A stretch of DNA of 52,151 nucleotides from Deltaproteobacteria bacterium. Lineage in GTDB: Bacteria > Desulfobacterota > Dissulfuribacteria > Dissulfuribacterales > UBA3076. Under the pieces are notes generated by a model. It was not told where the DNA came from. It was given only the letters and a program-made list of their open reading frames with translations, and made no database searches. Position 1 is the stretch's first letter. Every line of letters starts with the position of its first letter. The translations under genes were made by a program, and so were the position numbers. This document shows, piece by piece, positions 38,031 through 49,004 of the stretch. The DNA lies in contig DQXT01000052.1 of assembly GCA_011042225.1 (NCBI GenBank), forward strand, positions 1-52,151, in the 5' to 3' direction.

Positions 38031-39287
38031 ATGATAATCCACCGGAATATTGTATTATGGATCTTTCTGCTCGGGCTGATTGGTGCCCTAAGTGGCCTGG
38101 TTGTATTGTATAGACTCTTCTGGCCGTCCCCTGCCACTACTTTGCATGTGCCTTTATTAGAACAGGTCCCGATTGAACAACTTCCAGACTTTGAGGATAT
38201 AGAGGACAAAGAGGGACTGCAAAAGTCTATTTCAGCCAGTCTGGAATACCTTGAACGGCATAATGATGACAAGCAAACTGCCTGGGGCAATGAATCAATA
38301 AACATAGGCACATTAAAAAAGACATTAAAATCGTTTTCCGAACTACTTGACCAAAATTTACCCCAGCAGGATCTTCAGTCGGAAATCCGCCGCCGGTTTA
38401 TAGTTTACAGGACAACAGGGGATGAAAATCGGGAAAGGCCTGCGGGGCCGGTTCTCGTGACAGGATATTTCCAGCCCGAGATGCCTGCGTCTCTCGAGTC
38501 AGACGAAGAATTCTCCTATCCGCTTTATGAAACTCCCAAAGACCTCATTCGAATAACTCTAAATGATTTTGATTCCTCACTTCCGCGCAAGACCCTCTGG
38601 GGAAGGATATCAGGGCAAAGCCTGATCCCTTATTATACACGCGCTGACATTGATAATGGCAGAAAGCTCGAATGTGCCCGTGCCCTTGCATGGCTGCATT
38701 CACCAGTGGATGGGCTTTTGCTCCATATACAAGGTTCAGGGGCACTCCGGTTTCAAGACGAAAGTAAGAGATATATCCATTACGCCTCCAGCAATGGTCA
38801 TCCCTACTATAGTATTGGCCAATGGCTTATAGAAAAGGGACTGTTGCGTAAGGATCAGGCCGACTGGCCCGGTATCCGCGCTTGGGCACAAAAAAATCCG
38901 GAGGAATTCAGAAAGGCCTTTGATGCCAATCCCAGATATATCTTTTTCAGATGGGAAAGAGAAGGGCCAATAGGAACCCTGGGAAAAGTGCTGACACCCA
39001 TGAGATCAGTAGCCCTTGACAATAAGTTTTATCCGCTTGGTGCCCTGTGCTTTTTAAAAATGCAGATACCTGTGAACATGTCGATCCGCGGAGATACAGG
39101 CACTTTTCAGGGCTTCGTTTGCAATCAGGACAGCGGCGCTGCCATCAAAGGACCACACAGACTAGACCTCTATTGCGGGACAGGCGATATAGCCGGCAAT
39201 CTTGCAGGAAGCCTAAAGACATCAGGATCTCTCTATCTGTTGTTGCTCAAAGATGCTGTTCAGGGAACACGGCTCGGTCAACCCTGA
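38031..39287 (+). CDS. mltA: membrane-bound lytic murein transglycosylase A
   Basis: 418 aa. MltA domain (LLHIQGSGALRFQDESKRYIHYASSNGHPYYSIGQWL) and a 3D domain (VALDNKFYPLGA...CNQDSGAAIKGPHRLDLYCGTG). Confidence 0.85.
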   Translation: MIIHRNIVLWIFLLGLIGALSGLVVLYRLFWPSPATTLHVPLLEQVPIEQLPDFEDIEDKEGLQKSISASLEYLERHNDDKQTAWGNESINIGTLKKTLKSFSELLDQNLPQQDLQSEIRRRFIVYRTTGDENRERPAGPVLVTGYFQPEMPASLESDEEFSYPLYETPKDLIRITLNDFDSSLPRKTLWGRISGQSLIPYYTRADIDNGRKLECARALAWLHSPVDGLLLHIQGSGALRFQDESKRYIHYASSNGHPYYSIGQWLIEKGLLRKDQADWPGIRAWAQKNPEEFRKAFDANPRYIFFRWEREGPIGTLGKVLTPMRSVALDNKFYPLGALCFLKMQIPVNMSIRGDTGTFQGFVCNQDSGAAIKGPHRLDLYCGTGDIAGNLAGSLKTSGSLYLLLLKDAVQGTRLGQP

Positions 39288-39515: not shown

Positions 39516-40172
39516 TTGAGTATAGCTCAACCTAATTACAATTGTAAAAAATTGCCAAACTACCGAGTGACCTCGTCAAAATCTACCCTCATTATCGCGT
39601 TTCTTATCTTGTTTGTTTTGATCCTGACACCCTGTTCTTTATTCCCAATAACTGGAACTACTCTATCATTAGCAGAGGACCGGCCTGAACCAAAAATCTC
39701 TGAACTCACTGTATCAAGTTCCAGAGGTAAGCTCATGGCTTACTTTTCCCTCAAGAACGGATGTCCTAAATATGTACAAATTGCTTTAGAAAGCGGTATT
39801 ATAATACGTTATATCTATGAAATAGAGCTGCAAACACCCCGTTTTCTGATAGAAAAAAGGCTCTCCCGAATTTTCATATTAAGGACCCTTACCCATGACA
39901 ATCTCAAAGGGGAATACAGAGTTTCATTTGGTCCTGATTTCCCCAAAGTAGTCAGTGTAAGAACCTTGGAAGAAGCAAAAAAACTTGCTTTTGAAATTAA
40001 CGACATCTCGGTAATTTCTTTGTCCGAATTACCTCGGGGAAAGACATATACATTAAGCGTACGGGCAAGGATGGAAGAGGCGGGATCTTCCTTGCCCTTT
40101 AAAGGCCTTTTGGACTTTTTTTCAAAGTGGGGTTTTCAGACTAAATGGTATGAAGTCCGATTTAACTACTAG
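39516..40172 (+). CDS. DUF4390-like periplasmic protein preceding NtrY
   Basis: 218 aa with a signal-anchor and a beta-rich body. Its position immediately upstream of, and overlapping, an NtrY-type kinase is typical for DUF4390. TTG start. The family call is from memory. Confidence 0.6.
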   Translation: MSIAQPNYNCKKLPNYRVTSSKSTLIIAFLILFVLILTPCSLFPITGTTLSLAEDRPEPKISELTVSSSRGKLMAYFSLKNGCPKYVQIALESGIIIRYIYEIELQTPRFLIEKRLSRIFILRTLTHDNLKGEYRVSFGPDFPKVVSVRTLEEAKKLAFEINDISVISLSELPRGKTYTLSVRARMEEAGSSLPFKGLLDFFSKWGFQTKWYEVRFNY

Positions 40173-42396
40173 CGAAGCTAAAAAACGAAGAATAGAACGA
40201 ATCATTATGATGGCAGCAGTGGTTTTTATTGCCCTGCTGTCCTTAGCAGAGTATTATTTGATTTCGCACTCCAGTCCGCTATCGACAAGTAGCAATGTAC
40301 TGATCTTCGCAGTAATTAACCTTGATATCTTCCTCATCCTGCTCCTGGGTTTCCTCGTAGTACGGAATCTGACTAAACTCGTATTCGAAGACAAAAAACA
40401 CTTATTAGGGGCTAAACTCAGGACTAAACTCGTAATAGCCTTTATTTCTATATCCCTTATTCCTACAATACTGCTCTTCTTGGTCTCCTTCCAGTTTCTC
40501 AGAACCAGTATCGGATACTGGTTCAATATAAAGGTGGAAAAGTCCCTTGATAATGCTATGACAATAGGTAAAACATATTATGAAGGCCGGGTTACCGGAT
40601 TAGAACACCTGTCCCAAGAGACAGGGAGGCTCCTAAGCCTGAGATGTATCGAAGAAGACGGTACCATAAACAGGGTATGCATAGAACAACTGGTAAATCC
40701 AACACCGCTATCGTCAGGTGTTCAAGGCTACTGCAAAACGATTTCCTTAAATTCTATAGAGGTTATAAATTCGTTTCACAAAAAGCTTTTTGTTAAGATA
40801 TGGCTACCACTTGCAGATATGCCGCCAGATATTCCACATTCTGTGCTTAATCAGATTTTTGAAGGCAAGGATTCATTAGTACATAGTGTCACTTTAGAAG
40901 GCGGCGAGCTTATCCGGATATTAAGTCCTTTAAAAAATGCAGATAACGAGATTCTGGCCGTGTTAATTTTGGGCCACTTGATGCCCCGGGATATGAGTTA
41001 CCTGCTCGATGATATTCGTTCAGGTTATGATGACTATAGACAGTTACGGCTGTTTCAAAATCCAATAAAAGGCTCTCTGTTAATCACCCTTTGCCTGATT
41101 ACTTTGCTGATTATTTTTGTTTCCATATGGTTCGGATTCCGTCTTGCCAAAAGCATTACAGAGCCTGTTAAAATGCTTGCTGAAGCTACCAACCGTGTAG
41201 CAATGGGAGACCTGGATTTTAGCCTTGAATCTCAAGGTAAGGATGAACTAAGTTCTCTGGTGCAGGCATTTAATATAATGACCCAGGATATTAAGGAAGC
41301 AAGACGGAGGACTGAAGAGACTTCAAGACAGTTACGAAAGAGCTACGGCGAACTGGAACATCGCCGACGTTATATTGAGATCATCCTTCAAAACGTAACA
41401 GCAGGAGTAATATCTGTAGATAGACAGGGCTTTGTTACTCTAATGAATAAATCAGCTGAGAGCATTCTGAATATATCATCAGATCAGGTAATCGGTAAGC
41501 CTTATTCTCAACTCCTGACAAAGGATCATGCCAAGGAATTTGAGGAAATCAGACAGGAACTCAGCCGTTCTCCAAAAGGTACACTTCAACGTTCGATTCG
41601 TATGGAAATAAGAGAAAAGACCCTCTCTCTACTAGCAAACTTTACCATATTGAGAGACCAGGACGAGAGATCTCTTGGAGTAGTGATAGTCTTTGATGAT
41701 CTGACAGAGCTTGAGAAAATTCAGCGTCTCGCTGCTTGGCGCGAGGTAGCCAGACGCATCGCACATGAGGTCAAAAATCCTTTAACCCCCATACAGCTCT
41801 CAGCGCAAAGGCTACGCAAGAAATATCTTGATAAATTTGATAATGAAACCAGAGTTGTTTTTGATAAATGTACAAATACCATCATAGGTCAGGCCAAAGA
41901 ACTTAAACACCTTGTAGACGAATTTTCCAATTTTGCCAGAATGCCGTCCATCAGGCTCCGGCCTACGAAACTTGATGATTTGGTAGATGACGTACTTGCA
42001 ATTTACAGGGCCGGACATCCAAAAATCGAATTTAAATTGGATGTACAGGAAGGCCTGCCGAATGCATTGTTGGATTCTGACCAGATAAAGAGGGCACTTA
42101 TCAATCTCCTTGACAATGCGGTAGCCTCTATGACTGATGGTGGTAAAATAAATATTCTGATAACATATAACACCGCCGGGAATGAAATATGCCTCAGTAT
42201 TTCAGATACAGGAACAGGTATTTCCCCTGAGGACCTTCCAAGGCTCTTTGAACCCTATTTCTCTAAAAGAAGAGGAGGTACAGGCCTTGGGCTTGCCATT
42301 GTAAATTCTATTGTAGCGGACCATAATGGACACATATTGGTGAAGGACAATACCCCCCACGGGACTAAATTTATATTGATTTTTCCTATTAACTAA
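40150..42396 (+). CDS. ntrY: NtrY-like sensor histidine kinase (multi-TM, HAMP, PAS, HisKA, HATPase_c)
   Basis: 748 aa. N-terminal TM bundle, a HAMP after the last TM helix (ITEPVKMLAEATNRVAMGDLDF) and a PAS domain. H-box IAHEVKNPLTPIQLSAQ, N-box LLDNAVASM and G-boxes DTGTGI / GGTGLGLAIV. Confidence 0.8.
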   Translation: MKSDLTTSEAKKRRIERIIMMAAVVFIALLSLAEYYLISHSSPLSTSSNVLIFAVINLDIFLILLLGFLVVRNLTKLVFEDKKHLLGAKLRTKLVIAFISISLIPTILLFLVSFQFLRTSIGYWFNIKVEKSLDNAMTIGKTYYEGRVTGLEHLSQETGRLLSLRCIEEDGTINRVCIEQLVNPTPLSSGVQGYCKTISLNSIEVINSFHKKLFVKIWLPLADMPPDIPHSVLNQIFEGKDSLVHSVTLEGGELIRILSPLKNADNEILAVLILGHLMPRDMSYLLDDIRSGYDDYRQLRLFQNPIKGSLLITLCLITLLIIFVSIWFGFRLAKSITEPVKMLAEATNRVAMGDLDFSLESQGKDELSSLVQAFNIMTQDIKEARRRTEETSRQLRKSYGELEHRRRYIEIILQNVTAGVISVDRQGFVTLMNKSAESILNISSDQVIGKPYSQLLTKDHAKEFEEIRQELSRSPKGTLQRSIRMEIREKTLSLLANFTILRDQDERSLGVVIVFDDLTELEKIQRLAAWREVARRIAHEVKNPLTPIQLSAQRLRKKYLDKFDNETRVVFDKCTNTIIGQAKELKHLVDEFSNFARMPSIRLRPTKLDDLVDDVLAIYRAGHPKIEFKLDVQEGLPNALLDSDQIKRALINLLDNAVASMTDGGKINILITYNTAGNEICLSISDTGTGISPEDLPRLFEPYFSKRRGGTGLGLAIVNSIVADHNGHILVKDNTPHGTKFILIFPIN

Positions 42397-42444: not shown

Positions 42445-43833
42445 ATGGTAAAGAAAAAGATACTTGTAGTAGACGACGAAGAGTCAATCCTTCAATCTGT
42501 GACTGATATCCTGGAAGACGAGGGATTTGACGTCCAGACCTCACCGGACGGAAAGACTTCACTTGGAATCATGGGAGAAGATCTTCCGGATCTTGTCCTG
42601 TTGGATATCTGGATGCCGGGTATGGATGGCCTGGAATTATTGAAACGGATAAAGGCCGAGTGGCCGTTTATACCGGCGGTAATCATGTCCGGCCACGGAA
42701 CTATTGAAACGGCTGTAAAGGCTACCAGGCTGGGGGCCTATGATTTTATAGAAAAACCCCTTTCTTATGAACATCTGGTTCTTACGATCCAAAATGCCCT
42801 CAAATATCATAAACTTCGGGAAGAAAATGTCTTTTTAAGACAAAAAACCGGAGAAACGCGAGAACTTATCGGTGAAAGCCATGCTATGCGAAGGCTCAAG
42901 CAACAGATCGCTATCGTTGCCCCTACTGATGCGTGGGTACTGATCCAGGGGGAAAACGGAACGGGCAAGGAACTTGTAGCTCAAACCATTCACCGTATGA
43001 GCAAGCGAAGACGGAAACCACTCATAGAAGTCAACTGCGCTGCAATACCGGAAGAACTTATTGAGAGCGAGCTGTTTGGACATGAAAAGGGGGCCTTCAC
43101 CGGTGCAACTACCATGAAAAGGGGAAAATTTGACCTTGCAAATGAAGGTACCTTGTTCCTTGATGAAATCACCGATATGAGCCTTAAGACCCAGGCAAAA
43201 GTCCTGCGAATACTCCAGGAACAGAGATTCGAGCGGGTCGGCGGAAACAAGACCATAACCATAGATGTGCGCATCATAGCCGCCACAAACAAAGATCTTG
43301 AAAAAGAGATACGGAAAGGGCACTTCCGAGAAGACCTTTACTACAGGCTGAACGTGATACCAATAGAGGTCTCGCCTCTCAGAGAGCGCAAAGATGACAT
43401 CTTTCTTCTTGTAAAAGGTTTTCTGAGCGAATTTACAGGAAACACTACTCATGGTCCCAAAAAAAAGGCGAGCCGTGAAGTAATTGAGGCATTCATGGCA
43501 TATGATTGGCCAGGGAATGTAAGAGAGTTGCGTAATATGATAGAAAGGCTTGTGATTCTATCAAGAGAGCCGGAGATTACAACAAATGACCTACCTCCAT
43601 CTCTTCGTAAGGGCATCAGGACAGCTGCGGAGGCACAACAGACTAGTTCGCCTGGCGAGCCTGCTTGGCTGAGATGTCATGACTTCAGGGAGGCAAAAAC
43701 CTTGTTTGAACGGGAATATCTTGAAAAAAAACTTGCCGAACACCAGGGTAATGTTAAAAAAACCGCACTAGCTATTGGTATTGAAAGAAGGCACCTACAC
43801 AGGAAAATTAAGGCATTGGGACTGGAAACATGA
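42445..43833 (+). CDS. ntrX: sigma-54-dependent response regulator (REC, AAA+ and HTH; NtrX/NtrC class)
   Basis: 462 aa. REC domain with DLVLLDIWMPGMDG, Walker A GENGTGKE, the GAFTGA loop (EKGAFTGA), RERKDDI and a C-terminal Fis-type HTH. Confidence 0.85.
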   Translation: MVKKKILVVDDEESILQSVTDILEDEGFDVQTSPDGKTSLGIMGEDLPDLVLLDIWMPGMDGLELLKRIKAEWPFIPAVIMSGHGTIETAVKATRLGAYDFIEKPLSYEHLVLTIQNALKYHKLREENVFLRQKTGETRELIGESHAMRRLKQQIAIVAPTDAWVLIQGENGTGKELVAQTIHRMSKRRRKPLIEVNCAAIPEELIESELFGHEKGAFTGATTMKRGKFDLANEGTLFLDEITDMSLKTQAKVLRILQEQRFERVGGNKTITIDVRIIAATNKDLEKEIRKGHFREDLYYRLNVIPIEVSPLRERKDDIFLLVKGFLSEFTGNTTHGPKKKASREVIEAFMAYDWPGNVRELRNMIERLVILSREPEITTNDLPPSLRKGIRTAAEAQQTSSPGEPAWLRCHDFREAKTLFEREYLEKKLAEHQGNVKKTALAIGIERRHLHRKIKALGLET

Positions 43834-43838
43834 ATATA

Positions 43839-44465
43839 CTAATGAGAATTTGAAACCCGGCTTTCCCTCTTCCAGTCCTTTTCTTTCCCCTCTATCAATC
43901 TCTTGATGTTATCCCTGTGCCTTATCCAAATAACAAAGGTAATCCCCCAAGCCATAAGTTCAAGTTCATATGCCGGACAGAAAAAATGCATCAAAATGGG
44001 CATAAATAATGCCACTGAAAGAGATCCGACCGATACATAACCCCACTTCTTTAGTACTACTATAAACGTAAATACGGCAACGCCGACAGCAAAAGGACAC
44101 ACTCCGAGGAAGACTCCTGATGCAGTAGCGACGCCTTTCCCACCGCGGAACCTGAAAAATATTGAATAGCAATGGCCCATTACAGCACCGAGGCCTGTAA
44201 ACGCAATCCACAAATCGATATCTGCCGCTCCGGCCATTACCCAGATGCACCCAAGGACCGGCAAAAGGCCTTTCGCAAGATCTGCTGCCAGTGTAAGAAG
44301 TCCCCAGCCCTTACCCATCACCCTGGCTACGTTGGTAGCCCCTATATTCCCACTGCCATGTTTTCGAAGCGCTATGCCTTTGCAATGGGCTAAGAGCAGA
44401 CCGAAAGGTATTGACCCTAGAAGATAAGATCCGATCGGCCAAATTATTTGGGGCAAAAGACTCAT
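43839..44465 (-). CDS. plsY: glycerol-3-phosphate acyltransferase PlsY
   Basis: 208 aa, multi-TM. Carries GSGNIGATNVARV and FRGGKGVAT. Its ATG overlaps the stop of the upstream gene (ATGA). Confidence 0.9.
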   Translation of the reverse strand: MSLLPQIIWPIGSYLLGSIPFGLLLAHCKGIALRKHGSGNIGATNVARVMGKGWGLLTLAADLAKGLLPVLGCIWVMAGAADIDLWIAFTGLGAVMGHCYSIFFRFRGGKGVATASGVFLGVCPFAVGVAVFTFIVVLKKWGYVSVGSLSVALFMPILMHFFCPAYELELMAWGITFVIWIRHRDNIKRLIEGKEKDWKRESRVSNSH

Positions 44466-45418
44466 TTCTCAGGGCAGGTTAAGAGACGGCCTTTCATCAA
44501 GGCCTTTTTAAATTCTTCAAGCAGTCTGCTGTAAGAGTTCTGTTTTTTCTTTGCAATGTCCAATGATCCGGTCTGTTTATCTCCAAATCCCAGTTTCCCA
44601 TCGGCATTACGATCAAAAACCATATAACTGGGAGGCCTCGAAATCCCGTCTCCAAAGAGCAAGATTTCAATAGACCTGCTGTAATCAGTTCCCTCTTTTA
44701 ATCTCAAAATTGCCTGACCGAAAACTGTAACCAAGCTAAGTTCAGAAATATATCTTTTGCCCTTTCGTCCCCGCTCCGAAATCTGGTCTATGTACAAAGG
44801 ATTTGCAAAGGGACGCATCATGTCAAAAAAGTGGTGTCTACTATTTAAAATAATTACTATGTCGCCGACATCATTGAAAGAGTAAATAATATCCATATCC
44901 TGATTATTAACGGCTATACAGCCTTCGGTCCAGTCCCTCATCATGCTTTTTCCTCTTTTACGGTATACCCCTCCTCCATGTATACCAATACCACTGCCCA
45001 GAGACGTGCAGACAGATGGCAAATCCCTTGTTGATATGGCATTTACAATTATACGATATTCACTCAAAGAAATAAGCCCTTTTCTTAATCCCAGCCATGC
45101 ATCTACTTTATTGGGGTACGAAAGCCCCAAAAATTTATAGAATCTGCTATTATTCTTTTTGTAGATCACATAATAACAGCCCTCGGGGGTCGCCTTGTCT
45201 CCCCTGCGACTCTTGGGCGATATGGAATCTACTCCGAGAGAAACAGCAAAGCTTTCTACAACTTTACCATCTCTATAGAGATATAGGCGATGTAGTCCCT
45301 TATCGATAACCACATATTTTGAGGAGACTGTTTCGGCATTAACGCACCCAAGCAGAAGGGTCAAAAATGCTAAAAACGAAGCCAATACAGTAAAAAGCTT
45401 TAATAAATTGTCCTTCAT
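44462..45418 (-). CDS. YafK/DpaA-like L,D-transpeptidase-fold protein with a C-terminal extension of about 120 aa
   Basis: 318 aa with a signal peptide. Order of blocks: HRLYLYRDGKVV...GDKATPEGCYYV...LSYPNKVD...GIGIHGGG...TEGCIAVNNQDMDIIY. This is the COG3034/YafK pattern, with the YkuD catalytic Cys in the context EGC. Confidence 0.75.
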   Translation of the reverse strand: MKDNLLKLFTVLASFLAFLTLLLGCVNAETVSSKYVVIDKGLHRLYLYRDGKVVESFAVSLGVDSISPKSRRGDKATPEGCYYVIYKKNNSRFYKFLGLSYPNKVDAWLGLRKGLISLSEYRIIVNAISTRDLPSVCTSLGSGIGIHGGGVYRKRGKSMMRDWTEGCIAVNNQDMDIIYSFNDVGDIVIILNSRHHFFDMMRPFANPLYIDQISERGRKGKRYISELSLVTVFGQAILRLKEGTDYSRSIEILLFGDGISRPPSYMVFDRNADGKLGFGDKQTGSLDIAKKKQNSYSRLLEEFKKALMKGRLLTCPEK

Positions 45419-45612
45419 AACCTTTATAAATCAAAATTTATATGCTTGCCTACAAGCAAACTATCCTGTTATATTTTCAATATATCTGCCCTGTCTTGAA
45501 AGGCCACCCTCTCACAGGTGTTGATATTTCAGAACGGTTGAATATGCATAAAAATTTTCTATTGAATTATCTGTAAAACAAAACCTTAATATAATAGTTT
45601 TAAGGAGAAGTC

Positions 45613-45987
45613 ATGACACAAAAAGTTCCTGAAAAAAAATGGGCGATTATGAGAACGGCTTTAAGTTTGTTGCTTACACTAGGCCTGTTCATCTTGCCGG
45701 GCTGCGGTCTCAGTGAAGAAGATAAGGCCGTAATAAAGCAGGGCGTAAAGGCTGCCGAAGAATCTAAAGCAGCCGCGTCCAGGGCGGAAGCCGCCACCAA
45801 ACGATTAGAAGACTTGGCTTCCCGGCTAGAATCATCTGCACGAAAGGCTGAAGAAGCCGCGGCGGCGGCTGCCATGGCTGCCGACCGGGCGGATGCAGCG
45901 ACAAACAGGGCCTCTGAAGCGGCCAGCAGTGCTGAAACTACAGCTAAAAAGACGGAAAGAATTTTTGAAAAGAGTCTTCTTAAATAA
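45613..45987 (+). CDS. alanine-rich coiled-coil lipoprotein ending in Lys (Braun-lipoprotein-like)
   Basis: AAGGAG lies 5 nt upstream of the ATG. Signal peptide with lipobox LFILPG|C. The mature part, about 95 aa, is almost only A/E/K/S/R/T (AAEESKAAASRAEAATKRLEDLASRLESSARKAEEAAAAAAMAADRADAATNRASEAASSAETTAKK). The C-terminus is ...EKSLLK. Confidence 0.6.
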   Translation: MTQKVPEKKWAIMRTALSLLLTLGLFILPGCGLSEEDKAVIKQGVKAAEESKAAASRAEAATKRLEDLASRLESSARKAEEAAAAAAMAADRADAATNRASEAASSAETTAKKTERIFEKSLLK

Positions 45988-46078
45988 TTGAGGGCTACGT
46001 CTCTGTTTACTAAATCCGGCATCCCGCTTAAAGTGCAAAAAGTGTAAATCGAGACATGAGAGACGCCCATCAAATTTT

Positions 46079-47014
46079 CTATTCTTTGTCTGCCTGTGCT
46101 ACAGGCACCGGAATACCGGATTGTTCCTTGATGGCCCTCTGGATTTTTTTAAAATCGATTTCAAGGGGGCCTATTACCTGTTCGCAGGCAGAAATACCGG
46201 ATAAGACTACTGACAAAGGGTCATCAATATTATTTTCATAGTCTTGATATACCTGTAACCAGCACTTACCTTCTGCCCATCCAACCTTTATTGGTTCATA
46301 GATGATATGGACCAGTGTTCCCACTGGCACCAGCGGAAACAAAGAGGCTATATCTTCAGAATAAAGTCTTATACATCCATGACTAACTCGACGTCCCACA
46401 CCCCAAGGACGATTTGTGCCGTGAATACCATATGAAAGCCTAGAAAAACGCAAAATGTATTTTCCCAGAGGATTTTCAGGCCCGGGAAGTACCCGTTGGG
46501 GCAATTCAGGATCTTCCTTAAGAACAGAGGGTGGTACAACCCATATTGGATCCTTGGCCTTACTGAGCACTGTATAAACGCTCAGTTTTGTGGAGTAACC
46601 CTCTTTGCCAACACCTACAGGACATGTCCAAAAACGGGATTTCCCCTCTTTAGCAAACATGAAATGGTACAGACGCATCTCAGCAAGATTTACTACTATT
46701 CCAAACGGCGGACGTATTTTAGGCAAAACAAATACAGTAGGTACTATTACGCTGGCCCCTTCAAAAGGTACCCAAGGGTCTATGCCGGGGTTTGCTGCTG
46801 CTATCTGATTGTAACCTAGGTTATAGTCCTTTGCTATGTCGAGCAGGGTTTGTTTGCGCTCGGCCTTTACTGTTTTCATTTCCCCATAAACAGTTCTTCC
46901 CTCTTTAAGATCAAACATGTTGAAAGCATCGGCCGCTGGAAGTGCCGGAATAATTATTAAAAAAATGAGGTTTTGTATTAGCAGAACAGCTTTAAGAGAA
47001 AAAAAATTAAACAT
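46079..47014 (-). CDS. L,D-transpeptidase (ErfK/YbiS/YcfS/YnhG class) with an N-terminal LysM-like domain
   Basis: 311 aa with a signal peptide. LysM-like TLLDIAKDYNLGYNQIAAANPG. YkuD catalytic block YGIHGTNRPWGVGRRVSHGCIRLYSEDIASLF. Confidence 0.85.
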   Translation of the reverse strand: MFNFFSLKAVLLIQNLIFLIIIPALPAADAFNMFDLKEGRTVYGEMKTVKAERKQTLLDIAKDYNLGYNQIAAANPGIDPWVPFEGASVIVPTVFVLPKIRPPFGIVVNLAEMRLYHFMFAKEGKSRFWTCPVGVGKEGYSTKLSVYTVLSKAKDPIWVVPPSVLKEDPELPQRVLPGPENPLGKYILRFSRLSYGIHGTNRPWGVGRRVSHGCIRLYSEDIASLFPLVPVGTLVHIIYEPIKVGWAEGKCWLQVYQDYENNIDDPLSVVLSGISACEQVIGPLEIDFKKIQRAIKEQSGIPVPVAQADKE

Positions 47015-47333
47015 ATTGATTAGATAAAACCTTGTGAGCCAAACTAGTTGGCGAAATTAGATTGAATATTGTATTATAATCTGTATTTTAATACATGATC
47101 CTGTTTGTAAAAGGCATTATGGCAAATTGCTGAAAATATGCTTTAATTTTATCAGGTGGGCAACGGAAGTCACGACAGGTTTCCTGGACATTCTATCTCA
47201 AGCCAAACCCAAAATCACGAATCTGGGATTTGGCCCTCCTTCCTATGTATGGCCTATCCAGCACATGCGGTCAAGAATAGGCTGGTGAATGGGATCTATA
47301 GAACTGTGACGAAAATATCGGACGGAGGTCAAT

Positions 47334-49004
47334 ATGAAAAACTATTTTAAAAAGGCAGCAATAAAAATATATGAAGATGCAAAAGAAGAAAACCGACTTA
47401 TTGAAGGCCTTACCCTTGACAGATTCAAGGAACTTGCCATAAGACAGGAGGGGGTAATCCGGACACAAATGGGTTCAGTGGCGGCTGATTCCGAGCCTAT
47501 GTCCCGTTCGGCCCCCCACACCGCTAATAATATTGATCACCCCTTTGGGGAAGAAGAAGAGCAGTTGGCCCTGGAGGCAACGGAGTATCTGAGCAGGGAA
47601 AGAATAATTTCCCTTGACACCTTAGTAGGGGACGGCCGGGATGGAGTTACGGTCCGCTTTATAATTCCAGAAGTCTATGCCCAGCTGGCTTATGCTCTGA
47701 AGCTGCTTATGGACTATCCGGCGGCCAGAGTAGTGGAAGATCCCACTTACACCATTATTTTCTTTACAGATGAGGCATTCGAAAACAACAAGCACAAAAA
47801 GCTTATAGATAAAGATATCACCATCCGCCTCTGGATGGGCGAAAAAAGAGGCGAGCAGGTAAAGATATGCAGAAACAGTCTATATGTTGGTGAAGGGAAA
47901 AAAGGTGTTTTCCAGTTTGAGGACTGGAGGGTAAAAACCATTGACAAGACCGGCATCTTTCTGCACTCAGGTGCCAGAAGGGACAGGCTGTGGATATATG
48001 ATCTTGAAGCCGAAAGACCAGAGCTAAAGGAAATTGTTACAGGCGTCTCCGGTCTCACCGCAACCGGTAAAACAACAACACTTTGTAGAAAGTTTGCCAA
48101 GCTTCCACAAGAAAGTTCCGAGATGATAGGAGACGATGGTGGCACTCTGGGCTTTGACGGGAGTTATACCGCCTTTGAAGTAGGAGGTTTATATGTAAAG
48201 ACAGAGGGACTGGATGAAAATCAGCCTGAAATACTCCGTGCGGCAGACTCCCGTGATGCCTTTCTGGAAAATGTCGCTATTAGCAAATACCCCTATATAC
48301 CCGATTTTAAAAATATTTCCAAAACAGCAAACGGCCGGGCCGTCATTTCAAGAGAAAATCTTGAAATAGCAAATCCGTCCTTAAGGGCGGATAACCTGGA
48401 TTATATAATCATCCTTACAAGAAATCCCATGATCAATGCCATAAACAAGTTGACTCCTGAACAGGCTACCATGCAGTTTATCTACGGCGAATCAATTGAG
48501 AGTTCCGGAGGCAATCCAGAAGAGGCGGGCAAGTTCAAGCGCGTCTTCTTCCTTGATCCTTTTGTCTGTGGGAATCTGCTGGAGCATGCAATGATTTTCT
48601 ATAATATTATCAAAGGGAACCGCATAAAGTGCTATCTTTCCAATACAGGTACTATAGGCGCAAACGATACAAAAGTAAATCTGCGTCAGTCTCTTGCGAT
48701 TTACAATGATCTCAGTCGTATAGAGTTGAGGTTCAGCTCCGAACCCGATTTGTTGGGCTATCATTACCCTATTCAATGCGACCGGGCCAACCTCTCTCTA
48801 ATGAATGCCCACTCTCTTTTCCCTGACAAGGAAATCCTCAGAAAGAAAATAAAGGATTTTCTTAAGGGCAGGACAGAATATCTTGAAAATTTTGAGGCTA
48901 AGTTCGGTACAATTCCTGAACACCTTAAGGAATCATTGCCCTATCGTGAAAATCACGCCTATAAAATAACTGAAAACAATAAAGCTATGGGCATTGAAGA
49001 ATAG
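47334..49004 (+). CDS. divergent ATP-dependent phosphoenolpyruvate carboxykinase-like protein
   Basis: 556 aa; GGAGG lies 5 nt upstream of the ATG. The order of PEPCK(ATP) blocks is recognisable but each is diverged. SRSAPH stands for GRSPKD, GEGKKG for GEMKKG and LHSGA for MHCSAN. The P-loop is GLTATGKTT; IGDDGG stands for IGDDEHGW, NGRAV for NTRA and SNTGTIG for NTGWTGG. Confidence 0.6.
   Translation: MKNYFKKAAIKIYEDAKEENRLIEGLTLDRFKELAIRQEGVIRTQMGSVAADSEPMSRSAPHTANNIDHPFGEEEEQLALEATEYLSRERIISLDTLVGDGRDGVTVRFIIPEVYAQLAYALKLLMDYPAARVVEDPTYTIIFFTDEAFENNKHKKLIDKDITIRLWMGEKRGEQVKICRNSLYVGEGKKGVFQFEDWRVKTIDKTGIFLHSGARRDRLWIYDLEAERPELKEIVTGVSGLTATGKTTTLCRKFAKLPQESSEMIGDDGGTLGFDGSYTAFEVGGLYVKTEGLDENQPEILRAADSRDAFLENVAISKYPYIPDFKNISKTANGRAVISRENLEIANPSLRADNLDYIIILTRNPMINAINKLTPEQATMQFIYGESIESSGGNPEEAGKFKRVFFLDPFVCGNLLEHAMIFYNIIKGNRIKCYLSNTGTIGANDTKVNLRQSLAIYNDLSRIELRFSSEPDLLGYHYPIQCDRANLSLMNAHSLFPDKEILRKKIKDFLKGRTEYLENFEAKFGTIPEHLKESLPYRENHAYKITENNKAMGIEE

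Follow-up and report, generated by a model that had tools for sequence, protein, structure and literature searches.

The 52,151-nucleotide contig DQXT01000052.1 of a sulfate-reducer-type bacterium from the phylum Desulfobacterota (the whole of which is referred to here as the window) contains a cluster of three genes, in which the gene for a small alanine-rich lipoprotein lies between genes for two YkuD-domain proteins, one resembling DpaA (YafK) of Escherichia coli and the other the L,D-transpeptidases ErfK, YbiS and YcfS (LdtA-C). The lipoprotein is probably an outer-membrane tether of the OprI/Lpp type, whose C-terminal residue Lys124 would be joined to peptidoglycan by the neighbouring ErfK-type transpeptidase and set free again by the DpaA-type amidase encoded on the other side. 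Its place in the outer membrane, its oligomeric state and its covalent bond are inferred, and so is the role given to each enzyme. The cassette most likely represents a known type of system in a lineage that was thought to be without it; its rod is longer and its set of genes unusually complete.

According to the proposed mechanism, the precursor would be exported by the Sec pathway, lipidated at Cys31 and freed of its signal peptide. The ErfK/LdtA-C-type enzyme would take a tetrapeptide stem of peptidoglycan as the donor for attachment to Lys124. The DpaA/YafK-type enzyme, which contains alanine in place of the arginine of transpeptidases, would hydrolyse the amide between diaminopimelic acid (DAP) and lysine and thereby free the tether. 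We propose that such release would make the number of links tunable.

The mature lipoprotein is 94 residues long, rich in alanine, glutamate, lysine and serine, and its C-terminus has the sequence ERIFEKSLLK. An earlier note, made from the letters of the window, had described a strong ribosome-binding site, a signal peptide and a lipobox (LPG/C) in this gene, followed by an Ala/Glu/Lys/Ser helix with lysine as its last residue, and all of these features were recovered (Table 1). The helix of 89 residues in the AlphaFold2 model is not interrupted, has a mean predicted local distance difference test (pLDDT) score of 89.9, and would be approximately 13 nm long if fully extended. When the sequence is written in sevens from the C-terminus, heptads of the form A-x-R/K-A-E-x-A continue unbroken from the lipidated cysteine to the last lysine, with alanine in three columns of each heptad.

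Judged by its sequence, the lipoprotein belongs detectably to the OprI/alanine-zipper family and is more than an analogue of its members. The score for Pfam PF11839 (Alanine_zipper, OprI family) is 26.8 bits relative to a gathering score of 23.1 (E 6.4e-6), and residues 69-124 align to positions 14-69 of the 69-position profile, so that both reach their last residue. Reversal of the sequence lowers the score to 13.2 bits, and neither five heptad-preserving nor four full shuffles match the profile. Composition therefore accounts for about half of the PF11839 score, and the specific sequence for the remainder. Relatives of the lipoprotein match PF11839 in 14 of 16 cases and NCBIfam NF040598 (Lpp/OprI) in 16 of 16 at E <= 0.01. 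The family of E. coli Lpp, PF04728, gives no match to the lipoprotein at E <= 0.1. The proposal of the earlier note that the protein is a functional analogue of Lpp is upheld with respect to the Lpp-like architecture; however, the membership in PF11839 makes it more than only an analogue. Sequence matches in the PDB were limited to de novo designed coiled coils with E >= 0.013, and were rejected as an effect of composition.

Of 41 full-length relatives, 40 keep the C-terminal lysine; all 35 metagenome loci do so as well, as do 127 of 140 further representatives at 50% identity. The last set comprises those newly returned among the best 150 in an exhaustive profile search, which gave 847 representatives (50% identity) at E <= 0.001. 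The lipobox cysteine and the terminal lysine are the only invariant residues of the 41 full-length relatives, one of which ends in KKR, and the penultimate residue varies while the terminal lysine stays. The mature proteins of the group with the N-terminal motif CAxLSKEDR have lengths of 67, 74, 81, 88 and 95 residues, those of the CGLS form, to which the window protein belongs, 94 residues, and those of a sister group 73, 80 and 87 residues. Lengths stepping by seven are expected if both ends of the coiled coil must keep register. A minority of the family (P0012, P0161, P0169, P0173, P0216, P0223, P0258 and P0281) continues for one to six residues beyond the conserved motif SL[RK]K, so that the lysine is not terminal; examples of such C-terminal ends are KKR, RKR, HKTAPPAQ and RKTSP. 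In these forms either the tail is trimmed, or an internal lysine is used, or there is no attachment.

The arrangement of the three genes is conserved across orders. In reference genomes, the lipoprotein gene adjoins the DpaA-like gene divergently at all eight loci with a full-length DpaA-like protein, which include Desulfobacterales, Desulfomicrobium (two), Desulfobacteraceae and Desulfococcus, and the ErfK-like gene lies on the far side in six of the seven that could be assessed. About 24 of the 35 metagenome loci, which were found through the lipoprotein alone, contain both enzyme genes in the same orientation. The genomes nearest to the locus are metagenome-assembled genomes (MAGs) of Deltaproteobacteria, including an E20 Seep-SRB2 bin, which assigns the window to a Seep-SRB2-like member of Desulfobacterota. 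All three genes are also present in Desulfomicrobium sp. ZS1, where the lipoprotein ends in SLKK, as well as in Desulfatirhabdium butyrativorans and a Thermodesulfobacteriaceae MAG. The order DpaA-like (-), lipoprotein (+), ErfK-like (-) is found in lineages that include Desulfobacterales, Desulfomicrobium, Desulfococcus, Desulfatirhabdium and Thermodesulfobacteriaceae, whereas the outer neighbours vary from plsY with an NtrYX-like system to MarC, ApbA and rubredoxin, an RND pump, or a lactate permease. Since the outer neighbours differ, the linkage of the triad is selected and not merely inherited. The earlier note had suggested that the cluster could be a self-contained module of three genes. 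The triad does recur, and the small gene travels with its flanking genes and retains its lysine; however, the module is not self-contained everywhere, as the exceptions given below demonstrate.

The upstream protein consists of an N-terminal signal or anchor helix, a YkuD domain (residues 34-190; 78.5 bits for Pfam YkuD with a cut-off of 23.4), and a beta-rich C-terminal domain (residues ~205-310). Its blocks GDKATPEGCYY, SYPN, IHGGGV and DWTEGCIAV agree with the YafK-class pattern that had been noticed before, and T-x-G-C-[IV]-A is kept in all of its relatives. Amidases are characterized by the motif S-x-G-C-h-A, with alanine or asparagine at the last position, in contrast to S-x-G-C-h-R of transpeptidases (PMC8263019, PMC10434034). 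The best E. coli paralogue of the upstream protein is DpaA (E 1.6e-7, compared with 0.006 or weaker for the remaining paralogues), and its sole sequence match in the PDB is 8ikr, the structure of E. coli DpaA. Relative to that protein it has two insertions and the additional C-terminal domain. The AlphaFold2 model (pLDDT 82.7) retrieved only generic YkuD structures in Foldseek, with a query-normalized TM-score (TMq) of about 0.29 that does not separate DpaA from transpeptidases, and the C-terminal domain had no fold match in this search. The C-terminal domain includes an EF-hand-like loop, in which 40 homologues share D269, N271, D273, G274 and D280 without exception; going by the motif, it may bind calcium. 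The N-terminus of the upstream protein also contains an LLGC that resembles a lipobox; since its cysteine is not conserved in orthologues, we do not regard it as a lipoprotein signal.

The downstream protein also contains a YkuD domain (74.3 bits, cut-off 23.4), with the catalytic blocks IHGTN and GRRVSHGCIRL. The earlier assignment to the ErfK/YbiS/YcfS class, made from the SHGCIRL block, agrees with the BLASTP scores for LdtA (154 bits), LdtC (145), LdtB (144) and LdtE (120). The identity to LdtA, LdtC and LdtB is 36% over about 280 residues, and structures 9tyw and 4lzh in the PDB are matched with 213 and 141 bits. LysM and Ldt_C score 15.4 and 14.6 bits, which is below their gathering scores, while the alignment with LdtA and LdtE spans both regions. 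Thus, both flanking proteins have relatives in Lpp-type systems, the upstream one through TEGCIA and DpaA and the downstream one through SHGCIR and LdtA, LdtC and LdtB.

Several observations weigh against a tether of the OprI/Lpp type. The NF040598 score of the lipoprotein, 21.1 bits (E 3.3e-4), lies under the curated cut-off of 43, which is why such proteins carry the label "hypothetical protein" in databases. The lipoprotein cannot be aligned to Lpp, as the earlier note had stated for alignment by eye: BLASTP against E. coli Lpp gives no alignment, and hhalign of the Desulfobacterota profile with single Lpp and OprI sequences aligns only the signal peptide and lipobox. Since the helix is of low complexity and the PF11839 score is about half compositional, homology and convergence are not rigorously separable. 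The penultimate residue is leucine, whereas Lpp, OprI and Dickeya Lpp have arginine or lysine, and alanine occupies three heptad positions (a/d/g-like) as opposed to a/d in Lpp, so that the oligomer may not be a trimer. The ErfK-like protein matches the NCBIfam models PRK10190, PRK10260 and LdtE over their full length at 140-154 bits, relative to equivalog cut-offs of about 500, and the function of an L,D-transpeptidase cannot be assigned from its lineage; anchoring and cross-linking enzymes do not form separate lineages (PMC10434034). The upstream protein reaches 28.7 bits for NCBIfam LdtF_DpaA_YafK (NF040599; cut-off 365). L,D-carboxypeptidases also lack the arginine of the catalytic site (PMC8263019), which makes the amidase assignment the weakest step of the interpretation. 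The ErfK-like gene is missing from the locus in the close relatives L009, L011 and L104/L105. Its place is taken by a PhdYeFM/ParE toxin-antitoxin pair in L009 (6804-7360) and by unrelated open reading frames (ORFs) in L011 (1-1096), which is the E20 Seep-SRB2 bin; the lipoprotein and DpaA-like genes are kept in both. Neither enzyme is encoded within 3 kb of the lipoprotein relatives L121, L122, L125 and L129, and at L094 the DpaA-like gene and plsY occur with no lipoprotein gene beside them. The DpaA-like gene is absent from L110.

It is conceivable, but unlikely, that the attachment takes place as proposed while the upstream YkuD protein, instead of releasing the lipoprotein as an amidase, acts as an L,D-carboxypeptidase or endopeptidase similar to Csd6 or Pgp2, or has another chemistry, and governs the supply of the tetrapeptide donor. 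The shared absence of arginine and the low equivalog score would fit this explanation, as would the insertions and C-terminal domain that E. coli DpaA does not have; for a YafK-family protein of Legionella, another activity has been reported (PMC13400389). However, E. coli DpaA is the only sequence match of the protein in the PDB, and no other gene adjoins the lipoprotein as constantly as the DpaA-like one, which is adjacent at all eight full-length reference loci and, in Alphaproteobacteria, stands beside Lpp/OprI-like genes.

There is only a slim chance that the Lpp/OprI-like coiled coil is never bound covalently, and serves as a free periplasmic spacer or is exposed at the surface. The two YkuD proteins would then act on peptidoglycan only, in 3-3 cross-linking and trimming, and the linkage of the genes would reflect shared regulation of the envelope. 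Such a division is compatible with the finding that the function of L,D-transpeptidases is not legible from their phylogeny (PMC10434034) and with the lipoprotein relatives that have no adjoining transpeptidase genes, and the neighbour of E. coli lpp, LdtE, is itself a 3-3 cross-linker (PMC8263019). By contrast, it would leave unexplained why the terminal lysine is nearly invariant beside a drifting penultimate residue; moreover, the triad stays linked while its outer neighbours change, and the downstream enzyme is closer to LdtA, LdtB and LdtC than to LdtE.

Retention of the lipoprotein in the inner membrane, with binding to peptidoglycan from that side as in Dickeya OutB and no tethering of the outer membrane, is improbable. 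Inner-membrane proteins can serve as substrates of L,D-transpeptidases (PMC12274547). However, Lpp and OprI, which belong to its family, reside in the outer membrane. Under the sorting rules of E. coli, aspartate after the lipidated cysteine retains lipoproteins in the inner membrane; in the lipoproteins described here, this residue is glycine or alanine.

The idea that the small ORF is no gene and stays open by chance in low-complexity DNA rich in alanine codons, to which a 157-residue frame open on the opposite strand (45600-46073, -) might seem to lend support, is virtually without merit, since it is refuted by a ratio of non-synonymous to synonymous differences (pN/pS) of 0.05-0.28 in the + frame against 11 orthologues, by the presence of the ribosome-binding site, signal peptide and lipobox, and by the conservation of position and orientation in dozens of loci. 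The ratio corresponds to purifying selection, with 21-29 synonymous and 3-8 non-synonymous differences in close pairs of orthologues, and the 124-residue ORF is a genuine gene. The antisense frame is likewise open in orthologues, because codons for alanine, glutamate and lysine seldom give stops on the reverse strand; the pattern of substitutions identifies the + frame as the coding one.

Table 1 Features of the locus and related genes. Positions refer to the window unless a locus is named.
Feature	Position	Strand	Basis and remarks
plsY (glycerol-3-phosphate acyltransferase)	43839-44465	-	TIGR00023, 154 bits (cut-off 137)
DpaA/YafK-like YkuD protein gene, 318 residues	44462-45418	-	ORF and Pfam YkuD
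EF-hand-like loop D269-R-N-A-D-G-K-L-G-F-G-D280	44579-44614	-	within the beta-rich C-terminal domain
Catalytic motif T164-E-G-C167-I-A169	44912-44929	-	Ala where transpeptidases have Arg
Shine-Dalgarno AGGAG	45603-45607	+	5 nt before the lipoprotein ATG, read from the sequence
Lpp/OprI-family (PF11839) alanine-zipper lipoprotein precursor gene, 124 residues (94 mature)	45613-45987	+	ORF, PF11839, pN/pS
Signal peptide, residues 1-30	45613-45702	+	sequence; ends in FILPG, followed by C
Lipobox L-P-G-C	45694-45705	+	Cys31 (45703-45705), predicted lipidated first mature residue
Continuous alpha-helix, residues 35-123	45715-45981	+	AlphaFold2 and A-x-R/K-A-E-x-A heptads
C-terminal Lys124	45982-45984	+	predicted link of the epsilon-amino group to meso-DAP, by analogy with E. 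coli Lpp and P. aeruginosa OprI (PMC8263019, PMC10434034)
ErfK/YbiS/YcfS-type (LdtA-C-like) L,D-transpeptidase gene, 311 residues	46079-47014	-	ORF and Pfam YkuD; transcribed towards the lipoprotein gene
Catalytic motif S211-H-G-C214-I-R216 (transpeptidase type)	46367-46384	-	invariant in ErfK-like neighbours at related loci
Alphaproteobacterial Lpp/OprI-like gene	L028 5605-6021		
Alphaproteobacterial Lpp/OprI-like gene	L065 5461-5850		
Alphaproteobacterial Lpp/OprI-like gene	L072 2717-3145		
Alphaproteobacterial Lpp/OprI-like gene	L079 6073-6420		

In family scans, the trio is flanked by plsY on one side and by the gene for phosphoenolpyruvate carboxykinase on the other. The 4-nt overlap (ATGA) of the start of plsY with the stop of the DpaA-like gene, which the earlier note had pointed out, is present on the minus strand. 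The two genes are linked in L005, L009, L011, L093 and L094, and are not linked in L001, L091 and L092; plsY is context and no constant part of the module. Further genes before plsY encode an MltA lytic transglycosylase (38031-39287), a DUF4390 protein (39516-40172), an NtrY-like histidine kinase (40150-42396) and a sigma-54 response regulator (42445-43833). The NtrY-like/sigma-54 two-component system also adjoins the pair of plsY and DpaA-like genes in L005, L009 and L093. A perfect TATAAT hexamer (45590-45595, +) is positioned 17 nt before the ATG of the lipoprotein gene and 7 nt before the Shine-Dalgarno sequence, and another promoter-like site, with an extended -10 element, is at 45446-45475; scans of the region for promoters and terminators gave scores near background. 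An intrinsic terminator between the convergent lipoprotein and ErfK-like genes was rejected, because its hairpin is no better than those of shuffled sequences (z -1.65). Nothing in Rfam matched positions 43500-47500.

Two close homologues, the frameshifted lipoprotein P0002 and the DpaA-like protein P0046 from a 1630-nt contig, have been deposited as proteins of a "Methanosarcinaceae archaeon" MAG. Since the closest genomes are bacteria of the Seep-SRB2 type, the contig probably belongs to a bacterial partner and was mis-binned into an ANME archaeal genome.

Lpp/OprI-like lipoproteins with mature lengths of 68-80 residues are also encoded in Alphaproteobacteria (Defluviicoccus, Rhodospirillales). 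Those of L028, L065 and L072 end in ERMFQxxLRK and are encoded directly downstream of a short DpaA-like gene; that of L079 ends in MHSSGLRK and is encoded ~0.6 kb downstream of a DpaA-like gene. All four pass PF11839 (27.8-48.5 bits). For PF04728, with its cut-off of 29.1, L028 scores 17.6 and L065 28.2, while L072 and L079 give no match, and surveys relying on PF04728 alone would therefore miss all four.

A different, conserved helical lipoprotein, ~176-185 residues long, is encoded directly upstream of, and on the same strand as, a DpaA-like (T-x-G-C-x-A) gene in Bacteroidota, Zixibacteria, Acidobacteriota and Ignavibacteria (L027, L029, L034, L036, L039, L040, L044, L046, L049, L053, L055, L059, L060, L081, L084, L086, L087 and L088); most of these loci have it at positions of ~3.3-4.3 kb. 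Its mature N-terminus has the sequence C-x-K-x-P-Q-A-E-[IM]-D-A, its matches to DUF4398 are weak, and its C-termini are rich in lysine and arginine and not uniformly Lys-ended. It may be a different substrate that is tethered to peptidoglycan.

One survey confines Lpp to four orders within the Gammaproteobacteria (10.1101/2021.05.31.446380), and according to another, DpaA is found in numerous bacteria without Lpp, including Deltaproteobacteria (PMC8263019); both defined Lpp by PF04728 alone. The occurrence of DpaA-like genes in bacteria reported to have no Lpp has been described (PMC8263019, PMC12729407). For Desulfobacterota and some Alphaproteobacteria, the locus and its relatives point to a simpler solution, with a Lys-ended coiled-coil lipoprotein of the OprI type encoded right next to the DpaA-like gene. 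The view of Lpp as essentially gammaproteobacterial, which the earlier note had adopted, rests on such searches with PF04728 only. It is possible, although we regard it as doubtful, that the Lpp/OprI-type tether is an old cassette of Desulfobacterota, some Alphaproteobacteria and Gammaproteobacteria, composed of the lipoprotein and a convergent ErfK-type transpeptidase together with a DpaA-type amidase, and is not a recent gammaproteobacterial invention; release might be controlled by calcium through the EF-hand-like domain. If this were the case, surveys would have missed the cassette because PF04728 was used alone. Our literature searches found no paper on this family of lipoproteins or on the cassette in Desulfobacterota.

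If the lipoprotein is attached covalently, the tether known from textbooks is older and has a wider phylogenetic range than has been thought, and the orphan amidases gain a substrate. In addition, the heptad series of 67, 74, 81, 88 and 95 residues would provide a natural test of how the length of the tether relates to the width of the periplasm. The presence of the triad in the cultured Desulfomicrobium sp. ZS1 and Desulfatirhabdium butyrativorans makes the idea directly testable.

Other systems in which YkuD enzymes join envelope proteins to meso-DAP include LimB and the beta-barrels of Coxiella, the outer-membrane proteins of Brucella, and OutB of Dickeya. In contrast to what is predicted for the lipoprotein of the window, their substrates are beta-barrels linked through N-terminal glycine or alanine, or proteins linked through an internal lysine, and none is a coiled-coil lipoprotein bound by its terminal lysine.

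OprI of Pseudomonas aeruginosa is similar to the lipoprotein of the window in passing the gathering score of PF11839, in its small size and Ala-rich heptad helix, and in the C-terminal pattern E-K-x-x-x-K. Mature OprI, with ~64 residues, is shorter than the 94-residue protein of the window. OprI differs in its penultimate arginine, the position of Leu123 in the window protein, for which the NF040598 cut-off is not reached. OprI is anchored through the terminal lysine of its Arg-Lys terminus by the ErfK-type LdtPae2, and LdtPae3 is YafK-like (PMC10434034). In the window, by contrast, the genes for both enzymes are right beside that of the substrate, the YafK-like enzyme has an additional C-terminal domain with the EF-hand-like loop, and the host belongs to Desulfobacterota.

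The E. coli system, in which LdtA, LdtB and LdtC anchor Lpp and DpaA (LdtF) detaches it, shares with that of the window the lipobox, the coiled coil, and the C-terminal lysine as acceptor, as well as the pair of an S-x-G-C-h-R transpeptidase and an S/T-x-G-C-h-A amidase. The heptads of the window protein have alanine at three positions, whereas those of Lpp have leucine, valine or alanine at a/d, and its helix is ~1.6 times longer. The neighbour of E. coli lpp encodes the 3-3 cross-linker LdtE (PMC8263019). The convergent layout of the lipoprotein gene and an ErfK-type ldt gene is common to both, with a gap of 63 nt between lpp (+) and ldtE (-) in E. coli and of 91 nt in the window. In E. coli K-12, dpaA and ldtA-C are scattered over the chromosome, whereas in the window the genes for both enzymes are adjacent to that of the lipoprotein.

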